Below, one piece after another: positions 42,953 through 59,117 of a stretch of 64,000 bases of DNA. Each line of letters opens with the position of its first letter. The stretch's first letter is position 1. The stretch comes from Pseudobdellovibrionaceae bacterium (GTDB taxonomy: Bacteria; Bdellovibrionota; Bdellovibrionia; Bdellovibrionales; Bdellovibrionaceae): assembly GCA_039810425.1 (NCBI GenBank), contig JBDHWW010000010.1:1-64000 (forward strand). Reading direction: 5' to 3'. The translations under genes and the position numbers were made by a program. Under the pieces are notes generated by a model, which did not search any database, had not been told where the DNA came from, and saw nothing but the letters and a program-made list of their open reading frames with translations.

Positions 42953-44937
42953 CACAGAGCTCCGTACTTCTTAAGCTTAATTTTTGCCTTGCCGTAGTAT
43001 TCGCCGTCTGGAATATCAAGGTCCATGATCTTCTTCCACTTGTCTTTGGCCCCAGGACGAGTTTCACTACCCTCAACGTTGCCGTAACTCTCTTCAAGCA
43101 CGCCTTCTTGATACAAAACCATCATCTGCTTTTTCAACTCAAGAACATAACGTTGGATTTTATCCTTTGTATCATTATTCCCCGGATCAACATCCACGGC
43201 TTTTCTGAGGGTCAATATAGCGTCTTTCAACTTTTGATCTTTATAGAAATTCTCCGCTTCGTTTGTCAGCTGGTCGATTTTTTGTTTGAGCGTTTGCTGA
43301 ATCGCTGCAATCTGACGTCGGGCCTGCGGCTTCAACTCACCAGGATCCGGCAGGCTTGATGTTGTCACTGCCTGATACTCTTTGATGGCGCGCAAGAACT
43401 GATTTCCTTTGTGGCTGCTTTCTGCACGGCCAAAAAGTCCGCGAAGTTTGGCGACTTGGGCACTGTATTCCGCTTTCTGCGCATCACGCAGTTGCTTTCT
43501 CGTCGCAAATTCTTCCACCTGCCGCCGAAGCTCCGTGAATTTCGCGTTGGCCGGATCAAACTCAATGACAGGAGCTAAACACTCATCCAACTGAGCCATT
43601 GTAAATTCAGGTGTAATCTTACCCTGGCATTCCACCGTTTTCGTTTCAATCTTTTCGCGGTTCTCTGCCATTTTCTGTTCAAGCTGCTCTTGCTGCCGTT
43701 TCTGCTCTTGAATGACGAGAGCTTCATTCGCGAGGCGCTCGATGTCCTTTGTATCTTCGTAGTCAGGAACCAGCTCATAGATTTTTGTGACTTCGGCTTT
43801 TGCAAGCTCGTACTTACCTTGCATATAAAGGTTTTTTGCAAGCATGTAGGTCTGCTTCACTAAAATCTGTTGCTCCGGAGACAGCTTATTGAAAGCCTCA
43901 CTCGGCTTCATCGCACCTTGCTGTTGTTGACTTGGAGGCGGCTGCGCGTCCTGGTCACTGAAAAAGTAAGCAACACCCAATAGTAAGACCGCGCCGCCGA
44001 TAAGCTTAATACGGTGCTTTTCAAAATCAAATTTCTTATTTCCAGACGCCGGATGCCCACCAGGCCCCGCCGCCGGATAACCATAGCCAAGATGCGCTGG
44101 TGACATTTCACCCATCGGCATCGGCATATGCTGGCCATGCTGAGCGTACGTCGGAACTGTTTCGTGGTGGATCGCCACAAGCGGGTTTGGCGTCTGGGCT
44201 TTCACAAGCTCCATACGCGCTTTGAAATCAGGATCGTGCAATTCAAAATACAAATGATTATCTAAAACGCTGATTGCATCGCCGCTTTTAATCAGAATCG
44301 GATCCGTCGAAGGAACAGGAGTTCCATTCACCAGAGTTCCATTCACGCTGCCCAAATCCATAATCTGGAAAAAGCTGCCATGGCGACGCACTTCAAATTG
44401 ACGGCGGCTCACGCGTTGGTCACGAATCACGATATCACACGAAGAATCACGGCCTGCAATCCACGTGTCGCCGCCTTCAAGCTTAAAGAGCTCTTTGACG
44501 TCACCCTCGGAATTCACGACTTTGATGTAAGGAACCGTGTTATTCGAACCAATGAAAGTCTTCTCTTGCACATCGACTTCCGCATACGCCGACCCGGCTA
44601 TCGATTCAGGCAACCCTGGAGAAGCCACGGCCACGAGTTCCGATGAGACTTCAGAGTATTCAAATTCATAGGGACCTAAGTAAAATAGTCTGGATCCTTC
44701 CAGCGTTGAGTGTTGGATCTTTTCCCCATCAACAAGGACATCGCCAAACCGGGAAAGGACTTCGAGATTCCACTTATCATCAGCAAAGTAGATCTTAAAG
44801 TGCTCGCGGGAAATGCCTTTTTCACTGATCAGAACGATATCGCAATCATCCTTGCGGCCGGCAAGGTATGTACGTTCAGGAGCTAGCTGGACGTCTTGCG
44901 TGACTTTACCCCGGAAACGGACTCGCAAACGGGCCAT
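42952..44937 (-). CDS. Double-FHA, single-TM, TPR/coiled-coil protein
   Basis: AGR...ISREH and AGR...VSRRQ...DLGSVNGTLVNG; TM; TPR-like AVDVDPGN. Confidence 0.88.
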   Translation of the reverse strand: MARLRVRFRGKVTQDVQLAPERTYLAGRKDDCDIVLISEKGISREHFKIYFADDKWNLEVLSRFGDVLVDGEKIQHSTLEGSRLFYLGPYEFEYSEVSSELVAVASPGLPESIAGSAYAEVDVQEKTFIGSNNTVPYIKVVNSEGDVKELFKLEGGDTWIAGRDSSCDIVIRDQRVSRRQFEVRRHGSFFQIMDLGSVNGTLVNGTPVPSTDPILIKSGDAISVLDNHLYFELHDPDFKARMELVKAQTPNPLVAIHHETVPTYAQHGQHMPMPMGEMSPAHLGYGYPAAGPGGHPASGNKKFDFEKHRIKLIGGAVLLLGVAYFFSDQDAQPPPSQQQQGAMKPSEAFNKLSPEQQILVKQTYMLAKNLYMQGKYELAKAEVTKIYELVPDYEDTKDIERLANEALVIQEQKRQQEQLEQKMAENREKIETKTVECQGKITPEFTMAQLDECLAPVIEFDPANAKFTELRRQVEEFATRKQLRDAQKAEYSAQVAKLRGLFGRAESSHKGNQFLRAIKEYQAVTTSSLPDPGELKPQARRQIAAIQQTLKQKIDQLTNEAENFYKDQKLKDAILTLRKAVDVDPGNNDTKDKIQRYVLELKKQMMVLYQEGVLEESYGNVEGSETRPGAKDKWKKIMDLDIPDGEYYGKAKIKLKKYGAL

Positions 44938-46094
44938 TAGTATCTCCCCGCTTGCGCTAAAATGCACTCATTATAGTATTGTTTGGCTTCTTTAAAAATC
45001 GGATCTTGGTTGTTCGCAACCATAGTCATAACATTAAAATAAGCCGCTGCACACATGCGCCAGTTTTTCTTTTCACGGTAACGATTTCCCTGCAACATAT
45101 GGGCTTTTACTGTCTCATCGAACTTCAGTTTCGCGAGCTGATAGTAGCGCTTTGCCAGCTCGTTATCAGGATCCAGATTCAAGACGACTTGAAAAGATTC
45201 ACGTGCGCGGCCGTAGTTACCTTGTTTGTAATCACGAAAACCACGGATGTAGTTCTCTTGAGCACGGCGATATTGGACATTATCCAACTTTTCACGGCGT
45301 GCTTCGAATTCTTTAAGATCCCCTTTCGAGGTTTCAATATCTTTTTCAATTTGCTCCGTTGAACGGAATGTTAGTTCCTTCTTCGGGGACCGAGTTGAAG
45401 TCATCATCCAATAGAAGAAAATGCCAATCACAACCACGATCACGTAGAAACGAATGCGACCAGAATTGTCCCCGCCGGCAATTTTGCGGTGACGGCCACT
45501 GCCACTCGGACGTGGACTTGGAATTCCCATCGGCCCGGGCAAGTTCGTACCATAGTTTGGATGTCCACCGGCGGCTCCCGCCATGATTCCGGAGGGAGGC
45601 ATTGGCGACATCGGAGATTGCGGAACCGGGTACGGCCGGTTCGCCTGAAGGATCGGCATTTCTACGACGACAGCTTCAGGCTCAAAGTGTACTTTGGTTT
45701 TAGGCTCATCCAGATCATTTGGAGTCGCCGGCTCATTCAAATCCATACCCTCTGGCATTTCCGCAGTCGGCAATTGAAAATCAATGCGAAACTCGGTCTC
45801 GCCAATGTGAACAATAGCACCCGGCTCAAGCACCGCACTTTCAACTTGGCTGCCATTGACAGCCAAGAAGCTTTTCGAGCTGATGTTCACGATGCGAAGC
45901 TGATGCCCATCCCAATGAATTTCTGCATGCTTACGGCTTGCGCGAATATCATTTGAAAGAATCAAATCATTGTCGCTGCCACGGCCAATTTCAACAATCA
46001 CCTTGTTAAAGCTAAAGCTTTGCCCTGCCAGCGGACCGCGCTGGATTTGGATTTCAAGCTGAAAGCCAGTCTCTAACTGAGGAGCTGTTGACAT
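44937..46094 (-). CDS. FHA, Pro-rich linker, TM, TPR protein
   Basis: IGR...ASRKH; TM FYVIVVVIGIFFYW; VLNLDPDNELA. Confidence 0.88.
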   Translation of the reverse strand: MSTAPQLETGFQLEIQIQRGPLAGQSFSFNKVIVEIGRGSDNDLILSNDIRASRKHAEIHWDGHQLRIVNISSKSFLAVNGSQVESAVLEPGAIVHIGETEFRIDFQLPTAEMPEGMDLNEPATPNDLDEPKTKVHFEPEAVVVEMPILQANRPYPVPQSPMSPMPPSGIMAGAAGGHPNYGTNLPGPMGIPSPRPSGSGRHRKIAGGDNSGRIRFYVIVVVIGIFFYWMMTSTRSPKKELTFRSTEQIEKDIETSKGDLKEFEARREKLDNVQYRRAQENYIRGFRDYKQGNYGRARESFQVVLNLDPDNELAKRYYQLAKLKFDETVKAHMLQGNRYREKKNWRMCAAAYFNVMTMVANNQDPIFKEAKQYYNECILAQAGRY

Positions 46095-47767
46095 TACTCT
46101 CCCCCTTCCACTGGCGTGATACAGATGACGAAGTACGAAATCGCACCGTTCTCGACACCCATTGCGTGACAATGAATCTGGCAGTTATGACCACTAAATT
46201 CGAGCTGGTCGCTTTGGATAGAACCTGGCGCCAGACGCGATTTCTCTATCAAGTGCTGCATATTTTGTTGCAAAGCCAAGTCTGGAATTGCCGCAACCAT
46301 CTGATTTACCAACTGCGAAGACGAGGCATGCGCTAGCTGTTCAAAGTTCGCGTTCACAGAGACAATACGGCCTTCACCCGTCACTGCGACTGTTGGATAA
46401 CCCATCAACTGAACCAGGTTTTCCGCTTCGGAATCACGGCTAACCAGATTGACTTGGCCCCCGGCCTCGTCGCCACCATGCAAGTAGCGAGTCAAAAGGC
46501 TGTTAATGTTCGCAATCAGGTTTTGCAGTACCGGGAACTGGAATTCCACGTCAGCGGCATCCTTCTTCTCGCGCATGGCGATGTCGAGCTGCCTGTTGAG
46601 GCTCACGATCGGAAACTCAATCAGTTTATACATAAAGAAGAAGAGTAAGACGCCCACCAAACAAGCTAAGATCAGAGTTTGGAAGAACAAACTCAACACA
46701 TGACCATCGTCGAACGCCAGGCTTCCGATGTCATATAGAACAATCGCATGAGCTTTCACCGAGGGTTCGCCGGTATTTGGATCGTACTGCCCGATTGGGA
46801 AACTCGCGCCAATCGTTTGACTGTCGACTTGCTCCACCTGAGTCTTCATTTCACGACGAGCCACATGGACAAACGGAATATCCGGTGTCACACCTGCGCG
46901 GCTTGCCGGCGCAAGAATCATCCCGTCCGACTGCTGCACAATCATCACTTGCTTCACGCCGTCTTCTGTTTCAGCGGAATGGGTGCTCAAAGCTGAAATA
47001 TTGCCTTGCAAAAGTATTTGCTGATTCGCCATCGCCACGTTTCTGGCAATGGACTGAGCCCGGCGCTTACTTTCGGCCAAGATGCTGGATCTGGTAATCT
47101 GCACCATCGGAATCATCGATAGCAATGTCACTGCAAAGATAAATGCGCCGACGAAACCGCCGAGCACGTATTTAAACTCCACCAATTGCGGCAGCTTATA
47201 GATGCCCGGAAGGGCCACACGTTCCATATAGTCTTGCGCTTGGAATAAAAGATTCTGAGCAAAACCCTGAGGTGGCTCCACGCCTGGCATTTCGGCGGGT
47301 TCCGGCATTCCTTCGGGGAGAACGCCCATCATTTGCGGTGCTTGCTGCGTATAAGGCTGTTGATAACCTTGGGGATAATAGCTCGGAGCCGCATTGCCGC
47401 CATTTACTGGAACCGGCATCCCTTGTGGGTTTCCGGCGGCATGTGCTGTTGCGCCTGCTTGTGAACCCGGGCGAATATCCGGCGCGGGAATAATATCAAA
47501 GATCACGTCGTGCACGCTGACCTTGTCACCCAAACGGATGAGACCGTTCTGCGCCCGGACACCATTGATGTAGGTTCCATTGCTCGATTTCAAGTCCGTG
47601 ACAATGATCTTGTCTTTATAGACATGAATTTCAGTGTGCTCTTTCGAAACGCCATTGCTGGAGATCCTCACATCGCAATGCGGAGCGCGGCCGACGAGAT
47701 TTCGACCTAACTTTAAGTCATATATTTGACCCGCAAGCGGGCCTGTTAAGACCCTAATCGCCCACAT
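46094..47767 (-). CDS. FHA domain membrane protein with periplasmic sensor-like and PAS-like domains
   Basis: VGR...VSKEH...DLKSSNGTYING; two TMs; GRIVSVNANFEQL PAS-like. Confidence 0.85.
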   Translation of the reverse strand: MWAIRVLTGPLAGQIYDLKLGRNLVGRAPHCDVRISSNGVSKEHTEIHVYKDKIIVTDLKSSNGTYINGVRAQNGLIRLGDKVSVHDVIFDIIPAPDIRPGSQAGATAHAAGNPQGMPVPVNGGNAAPSYYPQGYQQPYTQQAPQMMGVLPEGMPEPAEMPGVEPPQGFAQNLLFQAQDYMERVALPGIYKLPQLVEFKYVLGGFVGAFIFAVTLLSMIPMVQITRSSILAESKRRAQSIARNVAMANQQILLQGNISALSTHSAETEDGVKQVMIVQQSDGMILAPASRAGVTPDIPFVHVARREMKTQVEQVDSQTIGASFPIGQYDPNTGEPSVKAHAIVLYDIGSLAFDDGHVLSLFFQTLILACLVGVLLFFFMYKLIEFPIVSLNRQLDIAMREKKDAADVEFQFPVLQNLIANINSLLTRYLHGGDEAGGQVNLVSRDSEAENLVQLMGYPTVAVTGEGRIVSVNANFEQLAHASSSQLVNQMVAAIPDLALQQNMQHLIEKSRLAPGSIQSDQLEFSGHNCQIHCHAMGVENGAISYFVICITPVEGGE

Positions 47768-48101
47768 GAAGCTCTTCTCCCACTTGAATGCCAAGTTCTT
47801 GAACGCGTCCCGCCGGAAACTCAATCACTGAGCTAGCGCCCCACACCGGCCATATAATGCGGAAAGGTTTTACCGACGGGTAAATCGCTTTCACACGTTT
47901 CTGTTTGTCCAAGAACACACAATCAATCGTAAATTTCATAAAATAGGTGTGGATGGAGTTGCAACGCCGAATCCACAGAGCTTGCTCTGTGCCCAACGAC
48001 TTACGGCCAAGAAGTCCCTTGCCGCGAGCCCATTCGGTCGCAGCGACGTCCAAATCCGCTATAAGTTGTAGGTTACGCGTCTTACTTACTAACACGGCCA
48101 T
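47754..48101 (-). CDS. DUF192 family protein
   Basis: RGKGLLGR, CNSIHTYFMKFTIDCVFLD, VIEFPAG. Confidence 0.9.
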   Translation of the reverse strand: MAVLVSKTRNLQLIADLDVAATEWARGKGLLGRKSLGTEQALWIRRCNSIHTYFMKFTIDCVFLDKQKRVKAIYPSVKPFRIIWPVWGASSVIEFPAGRVQELGIQVGEELHVGD

Positions 48102-48104
48102 CCT

Positions 48105-49016
48105 CTACTTCCCGCCACCGTGAATGAAGCTCACGGCAACCGGCCCAAAAACCATGATAAATACCGCCGGCAAAATAAATAACATCAACGGAATCAGAAT
48201 CGCTTGAGAAGCCTTTGCACCGGCTTTCTCGGCTCTCACAAAACGTTCTAGGCGCATTTGAACTGATTGATCTTTCAAAACACGCGAAATGCTCGCGCCA
48301 CTGGCCTCGGCGTCAATCAACACCGCAACGAAGCTTGTGATCTCAGAAATATCCAAACGCTCTGACATGTCCTTCAAGGCTTGGGTTTTTGAGGCGCCGA
48401 TCTTCACGTCTTTAAGCACTGTTGCCAACTCATCCGCCAGGACACTGTCTGTGCCTTTGGCCTTGTCGACGATCTTTTGGATCGCCGCAAAAAAATCAAG
48501 ACCTGCTTCCACAGACAACGCGAGGAGGTCGATGAAGAACGGTAAATCACCGCGAACTGAAACCTCACGACGCTTCTTTTCCGCAGATGCATGCATCTGC
48601 GGGAACACGAATCCCCCTAAACCCATCGCGATCAAAAGAGGCATTGGCAAATCCAGTGCCAATGCAAAGTTCATCACAGCCAAGAACACCGGGAACATGA
48701 GCCCCCAAAGGATTTGCAAACCGATGAACTCATCTTCGTTCAACTCCGATGATAAGCCGGAGGTCAGAATATATTTGCGGACGCGCTTACGATAACTCGC
48801 ACTCTTTATTCGGAGCGCATGTTGCAGTGTGAATTGGTGAACAAGTGGCCGAGAGAAATTTATAATCGGCGATTTCGAAGTGCTAGGTTCACTGTTATTT
48901 GCCCAAGAGAGTTGCTGCGTGTCTTGATTGCTTGAAAACAAAGCAGAAATAAAGAGGTAGATACTGAGTCCTCCCAACACGAAGCCTGCAATGAGCATTA
49001 AATCTGCGCTTCCCAT
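48105..49016 (-). CDS. tadC: TadC-like type II secretion F family pilus platform protein
   Basis: LPFFIDLLALSVEAGL; GASISRVLKDQS..MR..R...AEKAGAKA...ILIPLMLFILPA. Confidence 0.9.
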   Translation of the reverse strand: MGSADLMLIAGFVLGGLSIYLFISALFSSNQDTQQLSWANNSEPSTSKSPIINFSRPLVHQFTLQHALRIKSASYRKRVRKYILTSGLSSELNEDEFIGLQILWGLMFPVFLAVMNFALALDLPMPLLIAMGLGGFVFPQMHASAEKKRREVSVRGDLPFFIDLLALSVEAGLDFFAAIQKIVDKAKGTDSVLADELATVLKDVKIGASKTQALKDMSERLDISEITSFVAVLIDAEASGASISRVLKDQSVQMRLERFVRAEKAGAKASQAILIPLMLFILPAVFIMVFGPVAVSFIHGGGK

Positions 49017-49044: not shown

Positions 49045-49647
49045 ATGTACCAATTAATTTTGGCATCTGAGTCTCCACGCCGCCGACAACTTCTCCAAAC
49101 CGCAGGTTTTGTCTTTGACGTACACCCAGTTAAAGTATCGGAAACACCTGATAAAAACCTGAATATTGATGAGCAGATTTTAGACATAGCTGGACGTAAG
49201 GCTATGGCGGCATTTTCCGAGATAAAATCTGCGTCCCATAAGAACTTCCTGCTGCTGGCAGCGGACACAATGGTAGTTTACCACAATCAGGTCCTCGGAA
49301 AACCTCGCAATCAGGACGAAGCGTACGATTTTTTAAAACTTTTGTCTGGAAAAACCCACGAAGTGAAAACAGCTTTGGTCCTTGTCGAAAGTCTGGGCGG
49401 CCAACAGGTGTCTCATATTGAGACTTCCCGAGTGATGTTTCGTGATTTGCATGATGATGAAATCTGGACCTACATCCAGTCTGGTGAACCCATGGATAAA
49501 GCCGGTGCGTACGCAATTCAAGGTCTGGGACGCAAGTTTGTGAAAGAGTTTGTCGGCGATTATGACAATGTCGTCGGACTTCCCGTCAAAGCTTTCGAAA
49601 ATATGTTGGTGAAAATGAAGTGGTCCGTCGAAAGAGTGGAAAAATGA
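49045..49647 (+). CDS. maf: Maf family nucleoside triphosphate pyrophosphatase
   Basis: LILASESPRR, AADT, GKP, DKAGAYAIQG, NVVGLP. Confidence 0.95.
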   Translation: MYQLILASESPRRRQLLQTAGFVFDVHPVKVSETPDKNLNIDEQILDIAGRKAMAAFSEIKSASHKNFLLLAADTMVVYHNQVLGKPRNQDEAYDFLKLLSGKTHEVKTALVLVESLGGQQVSHIETSRVMFRDLHDDEIWTYIQSGEPMDKAGAYAIQGLGRKFVKEFVGDYDNVVGLPVKAFENMLVKMKWSVERVEK

Positions 49648-50330
49648 GCCTCGAAGCCGTCCAACAAGAATGCAATGACCTTCTGAAAAAACTTCACCGC
49701 ACACGTGAGAGTTTAAAAATTCTCGCGGTGTCCAAATTACAGACCGTGGAAAAAATGCGCCGTTTGTATTCTGCCGGGCACACAATGTTTGCCGAAAACT
49801 ACGTGCAGGAGGCTCTTCTTAAGCAAGACACCCTGAAAGATCTCGATATCGAGTGGCACTTCATCGGCAGTTTGCAAAAAAACAAAGTAAAACAAGTGGT
49901 CGGAAACTTCGCGCTCATTCATTCCGTAGATTCGTTTGAACTGGCCCGCGCGATTTCGAGCCACGCTGAAAAAATCAAAACGACTCAGAAAATTCTTCTC
50001 CAGGTCAACCTCGCACAAGAAGTCACCAAAGGCGGCTACAGCCGCGAAGCCCTGATGGTTCAATGGTCAGAAGTCTCTTCTTTTCCCGGGTTGGAAATAA
50101 CCGGATTAATGACCATGCCTCCTCTAACAGATGATCCCGAGGACGTTCGGCCTTATTTTCGGGAGCTAAGGGACCTACAAATACAATTGCAACAGAATGG
50201 CGCGGGCAGACATCAACTGCACGAGCTATCCATGGGAACTAGCCACGACTATCATGTGGCTATAGAGGAAGGAGCTACCATTGTTAGACTGGGGACGATA
50301 CTCTTCGGAGAGAGGCCAAGGAAGAACTAA
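49644..50330 (+). CDS. yggS: PLP homeostasis protein YggS
   Basis: LAVSK, ENYVQE, WHFIGSLQKNK, GLMTM, LSMGTS.D. Confidence 0.96.
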   Translation: MSLEAVQQECNDLLKKLHRTRESLKILAVSKLQTVEKMRRLYSAGHTMFAENYVQEALLKQDTLKDLDIEWHFIGSLQKNKVKQVVGNFALIHSVDSFELARAISSHAEKIKTTQKILLQVNLAQEVTKGGYSREALMVQWSEVSSFPGLEITGLMTMPPLTDDPEDVRPYFRELRDLQIQLQQNGAGRHQLHELSMGTSHDYHVAIEEGATIVRLGTILFGERPRKN

Positions 50331-50340
50331 AGGACCAACA

Positions 50341-51171
50341 ATGAATCAACTCTTAAAGCGCCAGAAGATCGGCTTCCTCGGAGCCGGCAACATGGCCCAA
50401 GCGATCATGAAGGGTATGCTCGAAAGCGGTGTCGCCACCGCGGATCAAGTTCTGGCTTCGAACCGCACGCCTGGAAAATTGCAAAAGCTTGCGGACCAAT
50501 ACAAGATCCAAGTTATCGATAATAACGAGTCTCTCGTTGAAAACTCTGACATCGTCATTTTGGCCGTAAAGCCACAGGACTTACTCACGGCGATTGAACC
50601 GATCGCGAGTTCATTCAATGACGATCAGATCGTCATCAGCCTCGCGGCCGGCATCAAGATGGAAACTCTTGAAAAATATCTCCCAAATGCGCGCTTGGTG
50701 CGCATGATGCCGAATACCCCGTCCATTATCGGCCGTGGCGTGATCGGTTATCTTCTCAATGAATCCGACAATGCACTCGAAGCCATGATGGAAGATATGT
50801 GCTCGCCGCTCGGTTATACCCTCAAAGTTGAAGATGAAGACCAATTCGAAGCCCTCATGGTGTCTTGCTCGTCAGGAACAGGGTTTGTTCTGGAGATGAT
50901 GATGTACTGGCAGGATTGGATCGTTGAGCACGGGTTTGATGAAGAAACGGCTAAACGTATGACACTTGAGACCTTTATGGGAGCGTCCATGCTCGCCGCT
51001 CAATCCAAAGATGTTCCTTTTGAAGAGCTGCAAGCCCGCGTCACTTCTAAAAAAGGTGTGACGGCAGCTGGACTTCAGTCCATGAGAGAGCTCGAAATTG
51101 AACGTGCTTTGCGTATCAGCTTCGAAAAAGCGGCGATGCGAAGTAAAGAAATCTCTCGCGAAATTAAGTAA
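50341..51171 (+). CDS. proC: Pyrroline-5-carboxylate reductase
   Basis: GFLGAGNMA, LAVKPQ, RMMPNTP, VTSKKGVT. Confidence 0.94.
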   Translation: MNQLLKRQKIGFLGAGNMAQAIMKGMLESGVATADQVLASNRTPGKLQKLADQYKIQVIDNNESLVENSDIVILAVKPQDLLTAIEPIASSFNDDQIVISLAAGIKMETLEKYLPNARLVRMMPNTPSIIGRGVIGYLLNESDNALEAMMEDMCSPLGYTLKVEDEDQFEALMVSCSSGTGFVLEMMMYWQDWIVEHGFDEETAKRMTLETFMGASMLAAQSKDVPFEELQARVTSKKGVTAAGLQSMRELEIERALRISFEKAAMRSKEISREIK

Positions 51172-51246
51172 CAGGCTTTATCCTAAAAAGGAGATTTCAA
51201 TACCGTTTGGTATACTTTCGATTACTAATTTTTGGGGGAACTCAGG

Positions 51247-51777
51247 ATGAAAATTACTCCTATCGATATCGTTCATAAATCTTTCAACAAAAAAATGATG
51301 GGTATTGATGCCGATGAAGTGAACGATTTCATGGCGCAAGTCGCTGCACAAATGGAAGCTTTGATTCAAGAACGCAATTCTTTGAAAGAAACTCTTCGCG
51401 AAAAAGAACTCAGCCTTTTGGAGTACAAAGAGCGCGACCAGGTTTTGAAAAACACGATCGCAACAGCAACACAAATGACAGAGCGTCTGCGCCAGGATTC
51501 TGAGCGCGAGGCGAAACTGATCATTGCGGATGCCAATCAAAAAGCCGAGATCATCATGCGCGACTCTCGTGATTCGTTGAAGAAAATGTATCAAGAAATC
51601 ACTGAGCTGAAGCGTGCCCGTATGCAATTCGAAGCCAACTTGAAGGCCCTTGTCCAAGCGCACTTGACTCTCTTGGATCAAGGCGAGAAGTACATGCCGC
51701 AAATGCAGCTGCCAAATATGAACATGGCACCAACGGGCGATAAATCGACCGAGATTTCCCCGCTTTCCGCTCGCTAA
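51247..51777 (+). CDS. divIVA: DivIVA domain protein
   Basis: ITPIDIVHKSF.KKMMG.D..EV..F followed by coiled coil. Confidence 0.92.
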   Translation: MKITPIDIVHKSFNKKMMGIDADEVNDFMAQVAAQMEALIQERNSLKETLREKELSLLEYKERDQVLKNTIATATQMTERLRQDSEREAKLIIADANQKAEIIMRDSRDSLKKMYQEITELKRARMQFEANLKALVQAHLTLLDQGEKYMPQMQLPNMNMAPTGDKSTEISPLSAR

Positions 51778-52070
51778 TGATCACAAAGTCTGACAGAGGC
51801 GTGAGACTCACCCTCTTCATTCAGCCGAAAGCTTCAAAAAACGAAATCATAGGGCCCCACAATGGGGCCCTTAAAGTTAAGGTCACAGCTCCTCCCGTCG
51901 ACGGCAAAGCCAACGCGGAACTCGTTGAGTTTCTGTCAGACATTCTCGAAATTCCCAAACGCCAAATTGAAATTCTAAAGGGCGAAACCGGCCGCAACAA
52001 GTCCGTTGAAATCACCGGGCTCTCCGTCGAGGAAATCTCCGCCAAGCTGGCATTGAAGCAATCTCGCTAG
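51777..52070 (+). CDS. yggU: DUF167 (YggU) family protein
   Basis: QPKAS, APPVDGKAN, GETGRNK. Confidence 0.93.
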   Translation: MITKSDRGVRLTLFIQPKASKNEIIGPHNGALKVKVTAPPVDGKANAELVEFLSDILEIPKRQIEILKGETGRNKSVEITGLSVEEISAKLALKQSR

Positions 52071-54817: not shown

Positions 54818-55161
54818 TGGCTCAATCGATTGGTTTTTTCCAGTTTGACAATCTCGTCCGGGGACGTGTGGGATTTGTATTTGTGAATCTCGGCATCGAT
54901 ACCAATCCCGTTTATCCACACGTTTTTAAAATGCACTTGGAACAAAAGCTTTTACAATTACCTAAAGGCGACTTAGCCAACGCCAGCGACGAGCAGATCC
55001 TTTCCGCAATGAATGAACAGCCGAAAGAATCCGCTGTGATTGTGTTAGATCAAAATGGCGCACGCGCGGAATCGCTCGCCAAAGCCCTCGAGGCCGCGGG
55101 ATTTATTAACACCTTTTACCTTAAAGGCGGCTGGAACCAGTTCCTGAAAGACCGCGCTTAG
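54817..55161 (+). CDS. Rhodanese-like domain protein
   Basis: IVLDQNG.RA...LEAAGF...LKGGW; TAATG-coupled to the MFS gene. Confidence 0.75.
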   Translation: MAQSIGFFQFDNLVRGRVGFVFVNLGIDTNPVYPHVFKMHLEQKLLQLPKGDLANASDEQILSAMNEQPKESAVIVLDQNGARAESLAKALEAAGFINTFYLKGGWNQFLKDRA

Positions 55162-56282
55162 ATTCGTTCCATAAAATCGTACTGAGCCTTGATCTTTCCC
55201 CCCAGGCTCACAAGCTTCTGCCAGCTTGCGCCGACTAAAATCTTCTTCGCAGAATGCCCGACTTCTTTTTCAAAAACTTCAACTGCTTCTTTCGCAGAAT
55301 CCGCGTTCATTTGCAGAATCACGAGTGTGCCTGTCGAGGCCGCATGGTAAGCAGCGGAGTAAATTTCTTTCTCAAGTCCGTAAGTCAAACCAAGCCCCAG
55401 GCAAATCACACTCGGACCCGCCATAGAGATCGCCTCGAAGTTGCGGTCAAAATCTTCTTTATCGCGTGAAGAGTATTCCACTTGGTTAATGCCATCGATC
55501 ACCAGTGACGTTGCGTTTTCCAAAGTGAAGATCACACGGTTTTGCTTCTTCATTTCGTTCATCAACGCATAGACCGTCGTCGTTTTTCCAGAACCTGTGG
55601 GTCCTCCCACGATGATGAGGCCCTTCTGTGCATCGGACCACTTCTTTAACATGGTCTTCTGCTCGGGCTCCAAACCAATCTGCTCAAAGTCAAAGTACGC
55701 AAGCTTCGGTTGCAGCAACGACAATGTTAGACAAGGCCCGGACACGGTTTCTACTTTTTGATAACGAATCTGCAGCACATCTTCTTCGCTGCGGTGAAGA
55801 TAAATGCGGCGCGAATGCCCGTTCTTAATAGGTGTGGAATGATCCATCCAGAAATCGTCCATCAAGCGGAAAACACCCTCTTCGATTTTGGTGATCTTTT
55901 CATAGCCGCTCTTGGCGTTGCGATAGGTGATCTCGTACTTGCCAAGACTTGGAGAAAAATGAATTTCGCTGCAGCCGTGGTCAAAGGCATCCCAGATCAG
56001 TTTTTCTGGCAATTCGTTTTGTAGATTCATGGTGGGTCCCTCCTTGGAACGTAAATGAGCTCTCTTTCCTAAGAACTCTGTTAGTTGCAAAATTTCTTTC
56101 TGGAGCTGAATCTTTGGTGCCTTCCCAGAGACATGCAGGTCTAGTTCATCCCGCAAAAACCTCCACTGACGGCCGAGCTTATGAGCCGGCACCTTTCCCG
56201 ACTGCAGCCACTTATAAAGCGTGCTGGGAGTTGTCTTTAGAAAATTAACGGCTTCGTCAAAGTCCAGGTATTCATTATCCAT
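55158..56282 (-). CDS. Excisionase-like HTH fused to degenerate PilB/GspE-family ATPase
   Basis: YLDFDEAVNFLKTTPSTLYKWLQSGKVPAHKLGRQWRF; SEIHFSP; GLIIVGGPTGSGKTTT; GINQV. Confidence 0.85.
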   Translation of the reverse strand: MDNEYLDFDEAVNFLKTTPSTLYKWLQSGKVPAHKLGRQWRFLRDELDLHVSGKAPKIQLQKEILQLTEFLGKRAHLRSKEGPTMNLQNELPEKLIWDAFDHGCSEIHFSPSLGKYEITYRNAKSGYEKITKIEEGVFRLMDDFWMDHSTPIKNGHSRRIYLHRSEEDVLQIRYQKVETVSGPCLTLSLLQPKLAYFDFEQIGLEPEQKTMLKKWSDAQKGLIIVGGPTGSGKTTTVYALMNEMKKQNRVIFTLENATSLVIDGINQVEYSSRDKEDFDRNFEAISMAGPSVICLGLGLTYGLEKEIYSAAYHAASTGTLVILQMNADSAKEAVEVFEKEVGHSAKKILVGASWQKLVSLGGKIKAQYDFMERI

Positions 56283-56318
56283 GAATAATATTAACTATCC
56301 GTGATTATCCATTGTCAA
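56274..56318 (-). promoter_or_regulatory. Promoter with 10-bp-phased GGATA direct repeats
   Basis: TTGACA at 56318-56313; GGATA starting at 56310, 56300 and 56280. Confidence 0.55.
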
Positions 56319-56518
56319 TTCAGACCTTACCAAGGTCGGTGTTGAGCGCTCTTGCTAAAATGTTGCTCTATGTCGACCCCTAACCACCTGTTCTCTCTAT
56401 ATTTTTTTCAGGAATCCGAAGAAGAAACAGTGAATTTGTCCGCTTTTGACCGTAAATGCACAAGAATTCACCTTCTAATGCTTGCGTATGAGGCCCCCAG
56501 CGATTAGACCGACCCTGC

Positions 56519-57880: not shown

Positions 57881-58085
57881 TCCCTGAATCCAGTCTTCTT
57901 CGTCACTTACCTTGTGTCTCGCTCTGAGACGCAGGTCCGGCATATCTCTTGAAATATCCTCTTCCTATACATGGCCTGAGATTCCAAGTTCTATAAGGTG
58001 GACTTGGAATCCGATCACCAGCAGTTCTCTGTCGAACTCGTCGACGGTTGAAAAGCGGAAAAGGCCCAAAAAAGGAGAAGAGGAT

Positions 58086-59117
58086 ATGAACTCGTTCAAA
58101 ATGCGCTACTACTATATGGCCCCTTTGTTGATGCTCGCGATGGTCGCTTGTGCGAAGCGCGACAATAACTTTGCGAAAAATGCTGCCGAAGCAAAAGCGG
58201 CTCAAGAAAAGACCGCCCAAGAAAAGGCAGCTCGGGAAAAAGCAGGGCAAGCACCCTGTACATCTCTGTGCCCTCCCTCGGCTCCTGGCGGAAAAGGTGG
58301 CACAAACCCAGGCAATACAGTTGATGGCGCCACTCCTGTCAAAGAAAAGGATGGCTCTACCGTGACCACCAAACCCGATGGCACTAAAGTCACTGCGACA
58401 GCTGATGGCAAGACCATCGTGACATCGCCTGACGGAAAAACGATGACTACGACTCCTGATGGGAAAATCACCGTAGAAGACAAGAAACCCGCGACTAAAG
58501 ACGCCTACAAAGGTGATCTTGAGCAAACTCTCGCTGATTCTTGCGAAAACAAACTCGCTATGGAAGTAAATAAAGACAATAAAGAAGAAGAAATTCAACT
58601 CAAAGACGTTATCACGAAAGAAAAAAGCTCGTACGTGCTTAAATCCACGGACCTTTTTGCTGAGCGCACAGATAAAGATTCCAAGACTTTAAACCAAATA
58701 GTTTTGGCGGGTTCTGCATTTGAATTGCCGAAAGACTTTAAAGACACCACTCAAGGCCAAGCCGTCATGGTGAACTGCCACACGATCAATTTGGCGGACG
58801 ACTCCTCACAAACAATGATCGGTGAGCTGGTGGTTCCATACGAAATCAGCACGGCGGACGGCGCGATCAAAGTTCTTCGTTTCGATAAAGTGGAGTTGAA
58901 GAATAAAAATCAGAGCACGGCTTTGACAGTGTTGAAAGCTAAAGACGGCAACTTAACGAATCTCATTGAGAAAGAGGCTGAAGGCCGAAAAGTTTTGCTT
59001 TTCAAAAACTCAGACTCTTCCGACATCACGATCCGCATTCAAAAGACCATCAAAGACGAAAAGACGGGCTCTGTAATGACAAAGACCTACTCTGCGACTT
59101 ACAGCCTTAAGAAGTAA
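58086..59117 (+). CDS. Lipoprotein with 9-residue DG repeats
   Basis: Lipobox MVAC; GAGGA SD; six DG dipeptides spaced exactly 9 aa apart. Confidence 0.8.
   Translation: MNSFKMRYYYMAPLLMLAMVACAKRDNNFAKNAAEAKAAQEKTAQEKAAREKAGQAPCTSLCPPSAPGGKGGTNPGNTVDGATPVKEKDGSTVTTKPDGTKVTATADGKTIVTSPDGKTMTTTPDGKITVEDKKPATKDAYKGDLEQTLADSCENKLAMEVNKDNKEEEIQLKDVITKEKSSYVLKSTDLFAERTDKDSKTLNQIVLAGSAFELPKDFKDTTQGQAVMVNCHTINLADDSSQTMIGELVVPYEISTADGAIKVLRFDKVELKNKNQSTALTVLKAKDGNLTNLIEKEAEGRKVLLFKNSDSSDITIRIQKTIKDEKTGSVMTKTYSATYSLKK

Follow-up and report, generated by a model that had tools for sequence, protein, structure and literature searches.

The fusion gene and its domains

The gene under study occupies 55158..56282 on the minus strand of the window (the whole stretch of DNA analyzed here, 64,000 nucleotides) and consists of one open reading frame (ORF) of 374 amino acids, with the stop codon included in the coordinates. 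A preliminary description had claimed that an excisionase/BldC-like winged helix-turn-helix (HTH) and a PilB/GspE-type domain are joined in this one ORF, and both Pfam domains were indeed detected above their cut-offs, namely HTH_17 (PF12728) at residues 5–48 (47.4 bits, cut-off 27) and T2SSE (PF00437) at residues 92–335 (102.9 bits, cut-off 24.9). The protein also matched the excisionase family TIGR01764 (36.8 vs. a cut-off of 28.8) but scored well under what NCBIfam requires for PilB, GspE, ComGA, and PilT, with 88 bits vs. a cut-off of 676 for TIGR02538. Database annotations of the fusion protein are routinely wrong, naming it PilB, GspE, TadA, or excisionase.

The AlphaFold model (mean pLDDT 90, pTM 0.79) is composed of four parts. 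The BldC/Xis-type winged HTH (residues 5–48; 56139..56270, minus strand), identified by Pfam/NCBIfam, profile, and fold matches, is followed by a long predicted linker helix (residues 55–78; 56049..56120, minus strand), which is seen in the model and the family alignment and is the least conserved region within the compact family. A PilB/GspE N2D-like domain (residues 90–192; 55707..56015, minus strand), recognized from the structure and the family alignment, retains R159 and R173 and carries Ser188 at the second arginine finger position; its Trp97 is family-specific and shows no variation among 183 proteins, even where identity drops to about 35%. The C-terminal part is a RecA-like ATPase domain (residues 196–374; 55161..55697, minus strand) with neither a zinc finger nor a C-terminal subdomain. 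In a Foldseek search, the ATPase-like core matched EpsE, GspE, PilF, and PilB at E values of 9e-22 to 1e-20 (9e-22 for EpsE), and VIA-align superimposed it on GspE (4ksr) over 269 residues with a Z score of 23.5 and an rmsd of 3.0, although the modelled core stops short of the C-terminal subdomain seen in those proteins. The comparison structures were 6AMA, 6AMK, 8DGL, and 4J2N for the BldC/Xis/RdfS type and 1p9r, 4ksr, and 5tsh for the assembly ATPases.

With PilB, GspE (EpsE), and PilF, the fusion protein has in common the N2D and RecA-like core, Walker A, the first Glu of the Asp box, and the equivalents of R257 and R271. In contrast, the N-terminal docking/MshEN domain of those motors, for which the fusion protein gave no Pfam match, is replaced by the winged HTH, and the catalytic Glu, the second arginine finger, both His-box histidines, the zinc finger, and the C-terminal subdomain of PilB/GspE are absent. 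All four motifs quoted in the preliminary description, an intact Walker A and degenerate Asp, Walker B, and His boxes, are present in the window protein. Walker A reads GPTGSGKTT (residues 227–235; 55578..55604, minus strand). The Asp box, TLENATS (residues 253–259; 55506..55526, minus strand), retains the first Glu (E255) and has Ser in place of the second; the Walker B region, GPSVICLGLG (residues 289–298; 55389..55418, minus strand), has Leu297 in place of the catalytic Glu; and the His box, TGTLVILQMN (residues 317–326; 55305..55334, minus strand), has lost both histidines. These box states are not assembly errors, because the same Asp-box and His-box states recur in relatives that are 85–91% identical.

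When a profile of 50 HTH sequences was searched against the PDB, the best match was BldC (6AMA, E 0.001), followed by Pukovnik Xis, and a search with the single sequence gave weak matches only. The modelled HTH fold matched RdfS (Z 8.4, rmsd 1.5, 53 residues aligned), BldC (Z 7.2, rmsd 1.7, 51 residues aligned), a transposon excisionase, and Xis, with Z scores ranging from 8.4 to 6.9, which are middling for so small a domain. BldC of Streptomyces has been reported to form head-to-tail multimers, with about one repeat per helical turn, through F21, W31, L43, G44, and an E16-R22 bridge (PMC5859096; PMC11963761). In a mapping made from sequence only, these interface residues align to L15, W25, L36, and G37 and to E10/K16, respectively, and the DNA-reading R30 and H46 of BldC align to K24 and Q39. 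Thus, the HTH of the fusion matches BldC, Xis, and RdfS in fold and in the residues of the head-to-tail interface, whereas BldC is a stand-alone protein of 68 residues with a large regulon and the fusion couples its HTH to an ATPase-like module of 290 residues, with one operator array found. The fusion gene also differs from the genes of Xis-type excisionases in having no conserved integrase neighbor. Together, these comparisons place the protein beside the BldC/Xis-type autoregulators in its mode of action, but outside their stand-alone members.

The window gene is flanked by a rhodanese-domain gene (convergent) and an MltF-like gene (divergent). The claim that no pilus genes are adjacent therefore stands for the immediate neighbors, but a TadC-like (T2SSF) gene lies 6 kb away, within a minus-strand cluster at window positions 44937-49016 that also contains a DUF192 gene and two FHA-domain genes. 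This cluster resembles the Tad/Kil-like clusters reported for predatory deltaproteobacteria (PMC8460266). On the other side of the fusion gene, at 57912-59117 on the plus strand, a gene encodes a predicted lipoprotein that contains a few consecutive T-x-x-x-x-DG repeats and matches no curated Pfam family above cut-off. The plus-strand stretch 49620-52070 holds a yggS-proC-divIVA-yggU run, with pilT on another contig; in many Proteobacteria, yggS adjoins pilT. The window genome also encodes intact PilB, GspE, and PilT, as well as FliA.

Distribution, catalytic state, and selection

The homologue search recovered 357 homologues among 4081 candidates, and 115 of the 120 matches listed carry both the HTH and T2SSE domains, so the fusion is not unique to one assembly, a possibility that the preliminary description had raised. 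The named homologues among the matches listed belong to Bdellovibrio or Bdellovibrionaceae. A second search, with a distant member as the query, gave 123 matches among 8000 scored and added a sister group, in which the members with taxon names are Microvenator marinus and two Bradymonadaceae. The orders of the named carriers, of Bdellovibrionales type and Bradymonadales, are both described as predatory (PMC8460266), and the compact fusion gene may be tied to predators, as judged from a handful of named homologues in a family most of whose members have no taxon name. The window genome itself is likely that of a Bdellovibrio-type predator. The cultured carriers named in the databases are Bdellovibrio sp. 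HCB337, a B. bacteriovorus strain, and Microvenator marinus. As a lead only, the best cluster in the ESM Atlas (0.90) was an HTH_17+T2SSE protein of Planctomycetota.

Within the order of the window genome, the gene was found in 26 of 384 genomes; besides the window genome, the carriers were 23 of the 181 genomes of its family and 2 of the 35 of one other family. Since it is absent from the other 358, it is not a core part of predation. A sample of 401 genomes of the phylum contained eight occurrences, all inside the same order. The fusion gene is missing from this site in four congeners, where the rhodanese gene directly adjoins the MltF-like gene, and one of the four has a 51% identical copy at another site. 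No conserved partner gene was detected, the neighbors being kept only among close kin, and none of 99 deduplicated neighbor ORFs from 33 loci matched a pilus or secretion Pfam family, unlike PilB/GspE, which are encoded with pilus genes. A few of the neighbor ORFs were resolvase, transposase, AbiEi/AbiEii, or BlaI/BlaR genes. The fusion gene thus behaves as a solitary accessory gene. No full-length fusion was present in viral loci among the 19 matches listed, no plasmid match was obtained at E 1e-20, and a search for longer fused forms gave six matches among 7261 candidates, none with an HTH, a result that carries little weight.

Such a distribution bears on whether the protein is an anti-phage decoy, a PilB mimic that would soak up phage-made PilB inhibitors and whose capture would lift autorepression, so that more decoy is made. 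Inhibitors of this kind, e.g., Aqs1 or Tip, are made by Pseudomonas phages. The patchy, solitary, insertion-like occurrence, the occasional resolvase, transposase, and AbiEi/AbiEii neighbors, and a regulon confined to the gene itself (see below), which suits a titration circuit, would agree with this role; however, most loci have no defense-island context, the protein has no effector domain, and PADLOC returned generic HTH and P-loop matches only, none of them convincing. The MADS defense system protein MAD1 was also compared, and the fusion reached 50.1 bits vs. a cut-off of 80 for NF047737 and stands alone, outside any mad operon context. We consider the anti-phage role improbable.

The catalytic state of the family was examined in a compact set of 183 proteins (190 homologues minus 7 shorter than 330 amino acids), with residues numbered after G. 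metallireducens PilB (PMC5424180) and the PilB of the window genome used as a bridge. The Walker A Lys233 is present in 183/183, the first Asp-box Glu (E255) in 181/183, and the R257 equivalent in 172/183. The arginine fingers (R271 and R286 equivalents) are found in 116/183 and 127/183, respectively, the window protein keeping R173 and having Ser188 at the second; the Mg-binding Glu (E357 equivalent) is found in 89/183, with Ser259 in the window protein; and the His-box histidines (H413 and H420 equivalents) in 152/183 and 34/183, with Thr319 and Asn326 in the window protein. The catalytic motif GE[VILM]R occurs in 0/183, the E395 equivalent being Leu297 in the window protein, and the tetra-cysteine zinc finger motif likewise in 0/183. 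An acidic residue anywhere at positions 295–299 was seen in only 10 of 120 homologues. The family consensus contains DPDV, with Asp289 in 166/183 and Asp291 in 174/183.

The family-wide losses are therefore the catalytic Glu, most of the second His-box histidines, the zinc finger, and the C-terminal subdomain, and the sub-lineage of the window has gone further than the family, with Ser188, Ser259, Gly289, Ser291, and Thr319. The earlier statement that all boxes are degenerate accordingly fits the window protein but not the family, whose defining loss is that of the catalytic Glu; as for the conservation of the substitutions, this loss is shared throughout, while part of the degeneration is limited to the window sub-lineage. 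The fusion protein departs from membership of PilB/GspE in five features (catalytic Glu, E357, arginine fingers, His box, and zinc finger/docking domain).

The Glu after Walker B has been described as fully conserved in PilT-like ATPases and as the catalytic one (PMC5424180), and M. xanthus PilB with the equivalent substitution, E391A, was reported to bind ATP without hydrolysis and to be inactive (PMC5544727). Because this mutant binds but does not hydrolyze ATP, the fusion protein quite probably binds ATP without turnover. The preliminary description of a DNA-binding, probably non-hydrolyzing protein is supported to that extent, and a likely operator was found as well.

A different reading is that the ATPase is slow rather than dead, with Glu255 as the catalytic base and a slow ATP cycle that would time assembly on DNA. 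In RecA-type enzymes, the equivalent strand supplies the catalytic base. The near-invariance of Glu255, the retention of the arginine fingers and of the first His-box histidine in a majority of the family, and the existence of closest HTH-bearing relatives with all catalytic motifs intact speak for residual activity. Against this, the catalytic residue of PilT-like ATPases is the Glu after Walker B, 110 of the 120 homologues have no acidic residue at 295–299, and the window protein itself has no Glu357 equivalent, one arginine finger fewer, and neither histidine. This reading, too, seems to have little probability, and ATP binding without hydrolysis is retained below.

Those relatives came from a metagenome scan, which revealed longer HTH-PilB proteins (about 480–530 amino acids) with the same HTH and with all motifs and the zinc finger intact. 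These long fusions (loci L066-L089, one named Planctomycetota) have the same N-terminal HTH type as the compact ones, but they keep the GE-x-R motif, the His box, and the zinc finger that the compact fusion does not have. In a quick tree of the ATPase core with 89 rows, the 47 compact rows fell on one side (SH-aLRT 99) and 13 long rows apart from them (98), and a subset of 37 rows separated all 21 rows with an HTH from 16 canonical PilB/GspE at a support of 87, a value that neither establishes nor rejects this split. With the reservation that the scan selected on the HTH motif and that the compact branch is long, the topology is consistent with a single fusion that may have been followed by loss of catalysis. 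The literature searched yielded no description of the long fusions.

The dN/dS ratios of 17 compact pairs were 0–0.12 for the HTH, 0.02–0.16 for the N2D domain, and 0.04–0.13 for the ATPase domain, in which two pairs were saturated. Values below 0.17 in all three domains mean that the ATPase part is under purifying selection and is not evolving neutrally, the other outcome that the preliminary description had considered. The mean modal fraction was 0.78 for the HTH, the most conserved part, vs. 0.54–0.57 elsewhere. It is very improbable that the gene is a mere relic, decaying or selfish, that descends from an active HTH-PilB gene and keeps its ATPase part only as a folding or oligomerization scaffold for the repressor. 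The continuing loss of catalytic-site residues in the window sub-lineage and a sole target that is the gene itself are what a relic would be expected to show; however, purifying selection is strong on both ATPase domains, the Walker A Lys and new positions such as Trp97 are invariant throughout the 183 proteins, and a gene that represses only itself provides no benefit to account for such conservation.

Candidate operator, promoter, and regulon

A candidate operator of 10-bp direct repeats lies at 56274..56313 on the minus strand, with units at 56313-56304, 56303-56294, and 56283-56274, so that the repeats, with the consensus WAYGGATAAT, fall within a 40-base segment that covers the promoter and the start codon. 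The last unit overlaps the ATG, and the slot at 56293-56284 is AT-rich and degenerate. The statistics were based on 29 deduplicated loci from 51 core loci. Their upstream regions contained 103 units, whereas 200 shuffles gave 8.5±2.7, the opposite strand gave 10, and 28 control regions gave 3. At least two units were found in 28/29 loci; the matrix was trained on the scored loci themselves, and the unit at -1 contains the start codon in 24/29. Successive units were spaced by 10 bp in 40 and by 20 bp in 12 of 74 cases. In a matrix-free autocorrelation with the ATG removed, the identity at lag 10 was 0.47, compared with 0.22–0.35 at other lags and 0.23 in controls, and lag 10 was the best in 20/29 loci and in 9/11 more distant ones, where the identity was 0.43. 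When a matrix was built from 26 other loci, the three units of the window gene scored 16.7, 10.9, and 13.2.

The unit type varied between clades. Of the loci with Lys24, 35/40 have a GGA(T/C)A core, compared with 1/9 of those with Arg24, where a TGA-type unit prevails. The covariation of residue 24, one of the putative DNA-reading positions, with the unit type is suggestive, although it amounts to about one evolutionary event. DnaA boxes were set aside as an explanation of the repeats; the units stand in a 10-bp register at the fusion gene in every context and depend on the clade. BldC-type sites and the candidate operator are alike in being direct repeats of about 10 bp, with an AT-rich tract beside a C-G pair, placed over the promoter. 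The long fusions likewise have a conserved motif between the -35 and -10 elements of their own promoter, but theirs is an inverted repeat, TATCATA-N5/6-TATGAYA, in contrast to the direct-repeat run of the compact clade. At ten loci of the long clade (L071, L073, L075, L076, L082-L085, L089, and L090), the upstream region shows a strongly conserved promoter, with TTGAC followed immediately by the inverted repeat, which fills the -35/-10 spacer. Upstream of a stand-alone HTH_17 protein of 62 amino acids (L091:2707-2880), 10-bp repeats of the GGATAAT type were also observed, and this protein is possibly a minimal autoregulator of the same specificity.

A TTGACA -35 hexamer, missed by a sigma70 consensus scanner, is located at 56313..56318 on the minus strand, 36 nt before the ATG, and the best -35 match was at -36 from the ATG in 11/40 loci. 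A Shine-Dalgarno motif is absent at the window gene and in most loci, and the transcripts are probably leaderless, with the repeats spanning the spacer, the -10 element, and the start. A weak FliA (sigma28)-like promoter was noticed further upstream (56334..56359, minus strand; 8/11 matches, a score reached by 10% of the genes of the window genome). With spacers of 15–17 allowed, at least 9/11 matches were obtained in 10/29 loci, compared with 1/28 controls, 0/29 reverse, 0.6±0.7 in shuffles, and 3.7% of 2645 genes, the motif having been noticed by eye before testing and the loci being related. In five loci, the FliA-like -10 ends exactly nine bases before the ATG. Attack-phase promoters of B. 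bacteriovorus have been reported to read TTAAG-N16-CCGATA (PMC3627812), and the FliA-like matches give a hint that the fusion gene may be expressed in the attack phase. A semi-conserved GAC-N3/4-GTC or CTGGACT element was also seen at about -85 to -50 in nine loci (L007, L010, L015, L031, L038, L039, L042, L043, and L049), and it could be the -35 region of a FliA-like promoter or the site of another factor.

To find other targets, the repeat array was scored across the window genome. The gene's own promoter scored 40.0 and the next sites about 18.1–18.5, and among 3108 upstream windows the only one reaching 25 was that of the fusion gene. In this ranking, which did not extend to pilT, the repeat score was 0 for each of pilB, gspE, and the tadC-like gene. 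Pairs of 10-bp units were not in excess genome-wide, with 17 pairs vs. 8–20 at spacings of 8–15 (84 at 7), and no excess was found upstream of genes at any threshold save at the gene's own promoter. No second array was obvious in five related genomes, with 15–23 matches vs. 3–16 in controls, the sites not having been inspected singly; four of the five were within about two-fold of control, and G355 had 23 matches of the two-unit pattern vs. 3 in the reversed control. The only visible DNA target is hence the fusion gene itself, as far as operator-like sequence can tell. The suggestion in the preliminary description of a transcription factor that links pilus motors to gene expression is thus not supported as it was worded.

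Because BldC tolerates degenerate sites, further targets may have escaped this scoring. The corresponding alternative is a true one-component transcription factor in which the dead ATPase would be a sensor of ATP/ADP or some other nucleotide and the HTH would run a wider regulon through degenerate, shape-read sites. It draws on the reported use of indirect readout by BldC on divergent repeats (PMC5859096), on the HTH being the most conserved part of the protein, and on the retention of nucleotide-binding residues. Yet neither the genome-wide pair counts nor the upstream regions point to further sites, the pattern counts are about two-fold of control or less in four of the five other genomes, and a global regulator is unlikely to be encoded by a gene that is patchy and mobile. 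We therefore regard a wider regulon as rather unlikely.

Possible role of the motor-like domain

The reading that we prefer, held tentatively and at somewhat less than an even chance as a whole, is an ATP-binding, non-hydrolyzing autorepressor that acts as a decoy or brake on PilB/GspE-type motors. Its best-founded part is that cooperative binding of the HTHs to the repeats, with occlusion of RNA polymerase, very probably represses the gene itself. The HTHs would polymerize head-to-tail on the 10-bp repeats and block the polymerase, and repression may be aided by self-association of the ATP-bound, non-hydrolyzing core formed by the N2D and RecA domains. Autorepression would keep the dose of the protein steady, and the motor-like domain may serve as a dose-controlled decoy or brake on the PilB/GspE-type motors of the host or on their partners. 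Capture of this domain by a partner would lift repression and lead to more protein, likely in the attack phase.

The argument for the second half of this scheme starts from the lack of any visible DNA target other than the gene. A regulator confined to its own gene needs another output to stay under selection, and this useful output should be the protein. That this output is a decoy or brake with a titration step is the most speculative part, which we would put at a modest possibility, no better than the reading as a whole. The homology to motors, the predatory hosts, and the attack-phase promoters speak for it, and the missing pilus neighbors, the missing docking domain, and the absence from most relatives speak against it, which is why the whole statement is made tentatively. 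In particular, with the N-terminal docking domain and the C-terminal subdomain gone, the case for co-assembly with a real motor is weakened.

A more specific version, which we consider unlikely though worth stating, is a mobile one-gene pilus-motor homeostat of predators, in which an ATP-locked PilB copy, connected to its own promoter by a BldC-type head, would use titration to count motor partners that are free (or PilB inhibitors made by phages) and would brake or protect the type IV pilus or secretion motor in the attack phase. It is similarly doubtful that such a homeostat represents the end point of a visible series, which would have begun with a motor and passed through an active HTH-ATPase whose operator is palindromic before reaching the compact dead form, whose operator consists of direct repeats.

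The literature covered, which lay outside subscription journals, yielded no description of the compact fusion, and the compact predator clade, the direct-repeat operator, the self-only regulon, and the hint of an attack-phase promoter are new. Pilus and secretion ATPases are known as motors, and the family represents a conserved DNA-binding pseudo-ATPase with a readable operator, in which this fold appears to have been reused for regulation. The system is directly testable, since the operator site and the promoter have been delimited and the residues for mutation named. If the motor-like domain does act on PilB/GspE, it would be a built-in, dose-controlled regulator of the prey-attachment machines of Bdellovibrio.

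The closest regulatory parallel among the motors is Myxococcus xanthus PilB, which was reported to signal for exopolysaccharide in its nucleotide-free form (PMC5544727). Both proteins would use a PilB fold in regulation for which hydrolysis is not needed, and the Walker B Glu mutant of the former binds ATP; however, M. xanthus PilB is a normal motor with a second role that is not exerted via DNA, whereas the fusion appears to be a paralogue in its own right, dedicated to this role and DNA-binding. Motifs that degenerated independently were also observed in other PilB-like proteins, some with and some without an HTH (P0192, P0196, P0227, and P0229), and these suggest that the PilB fold has lost catalysis repeatedly.
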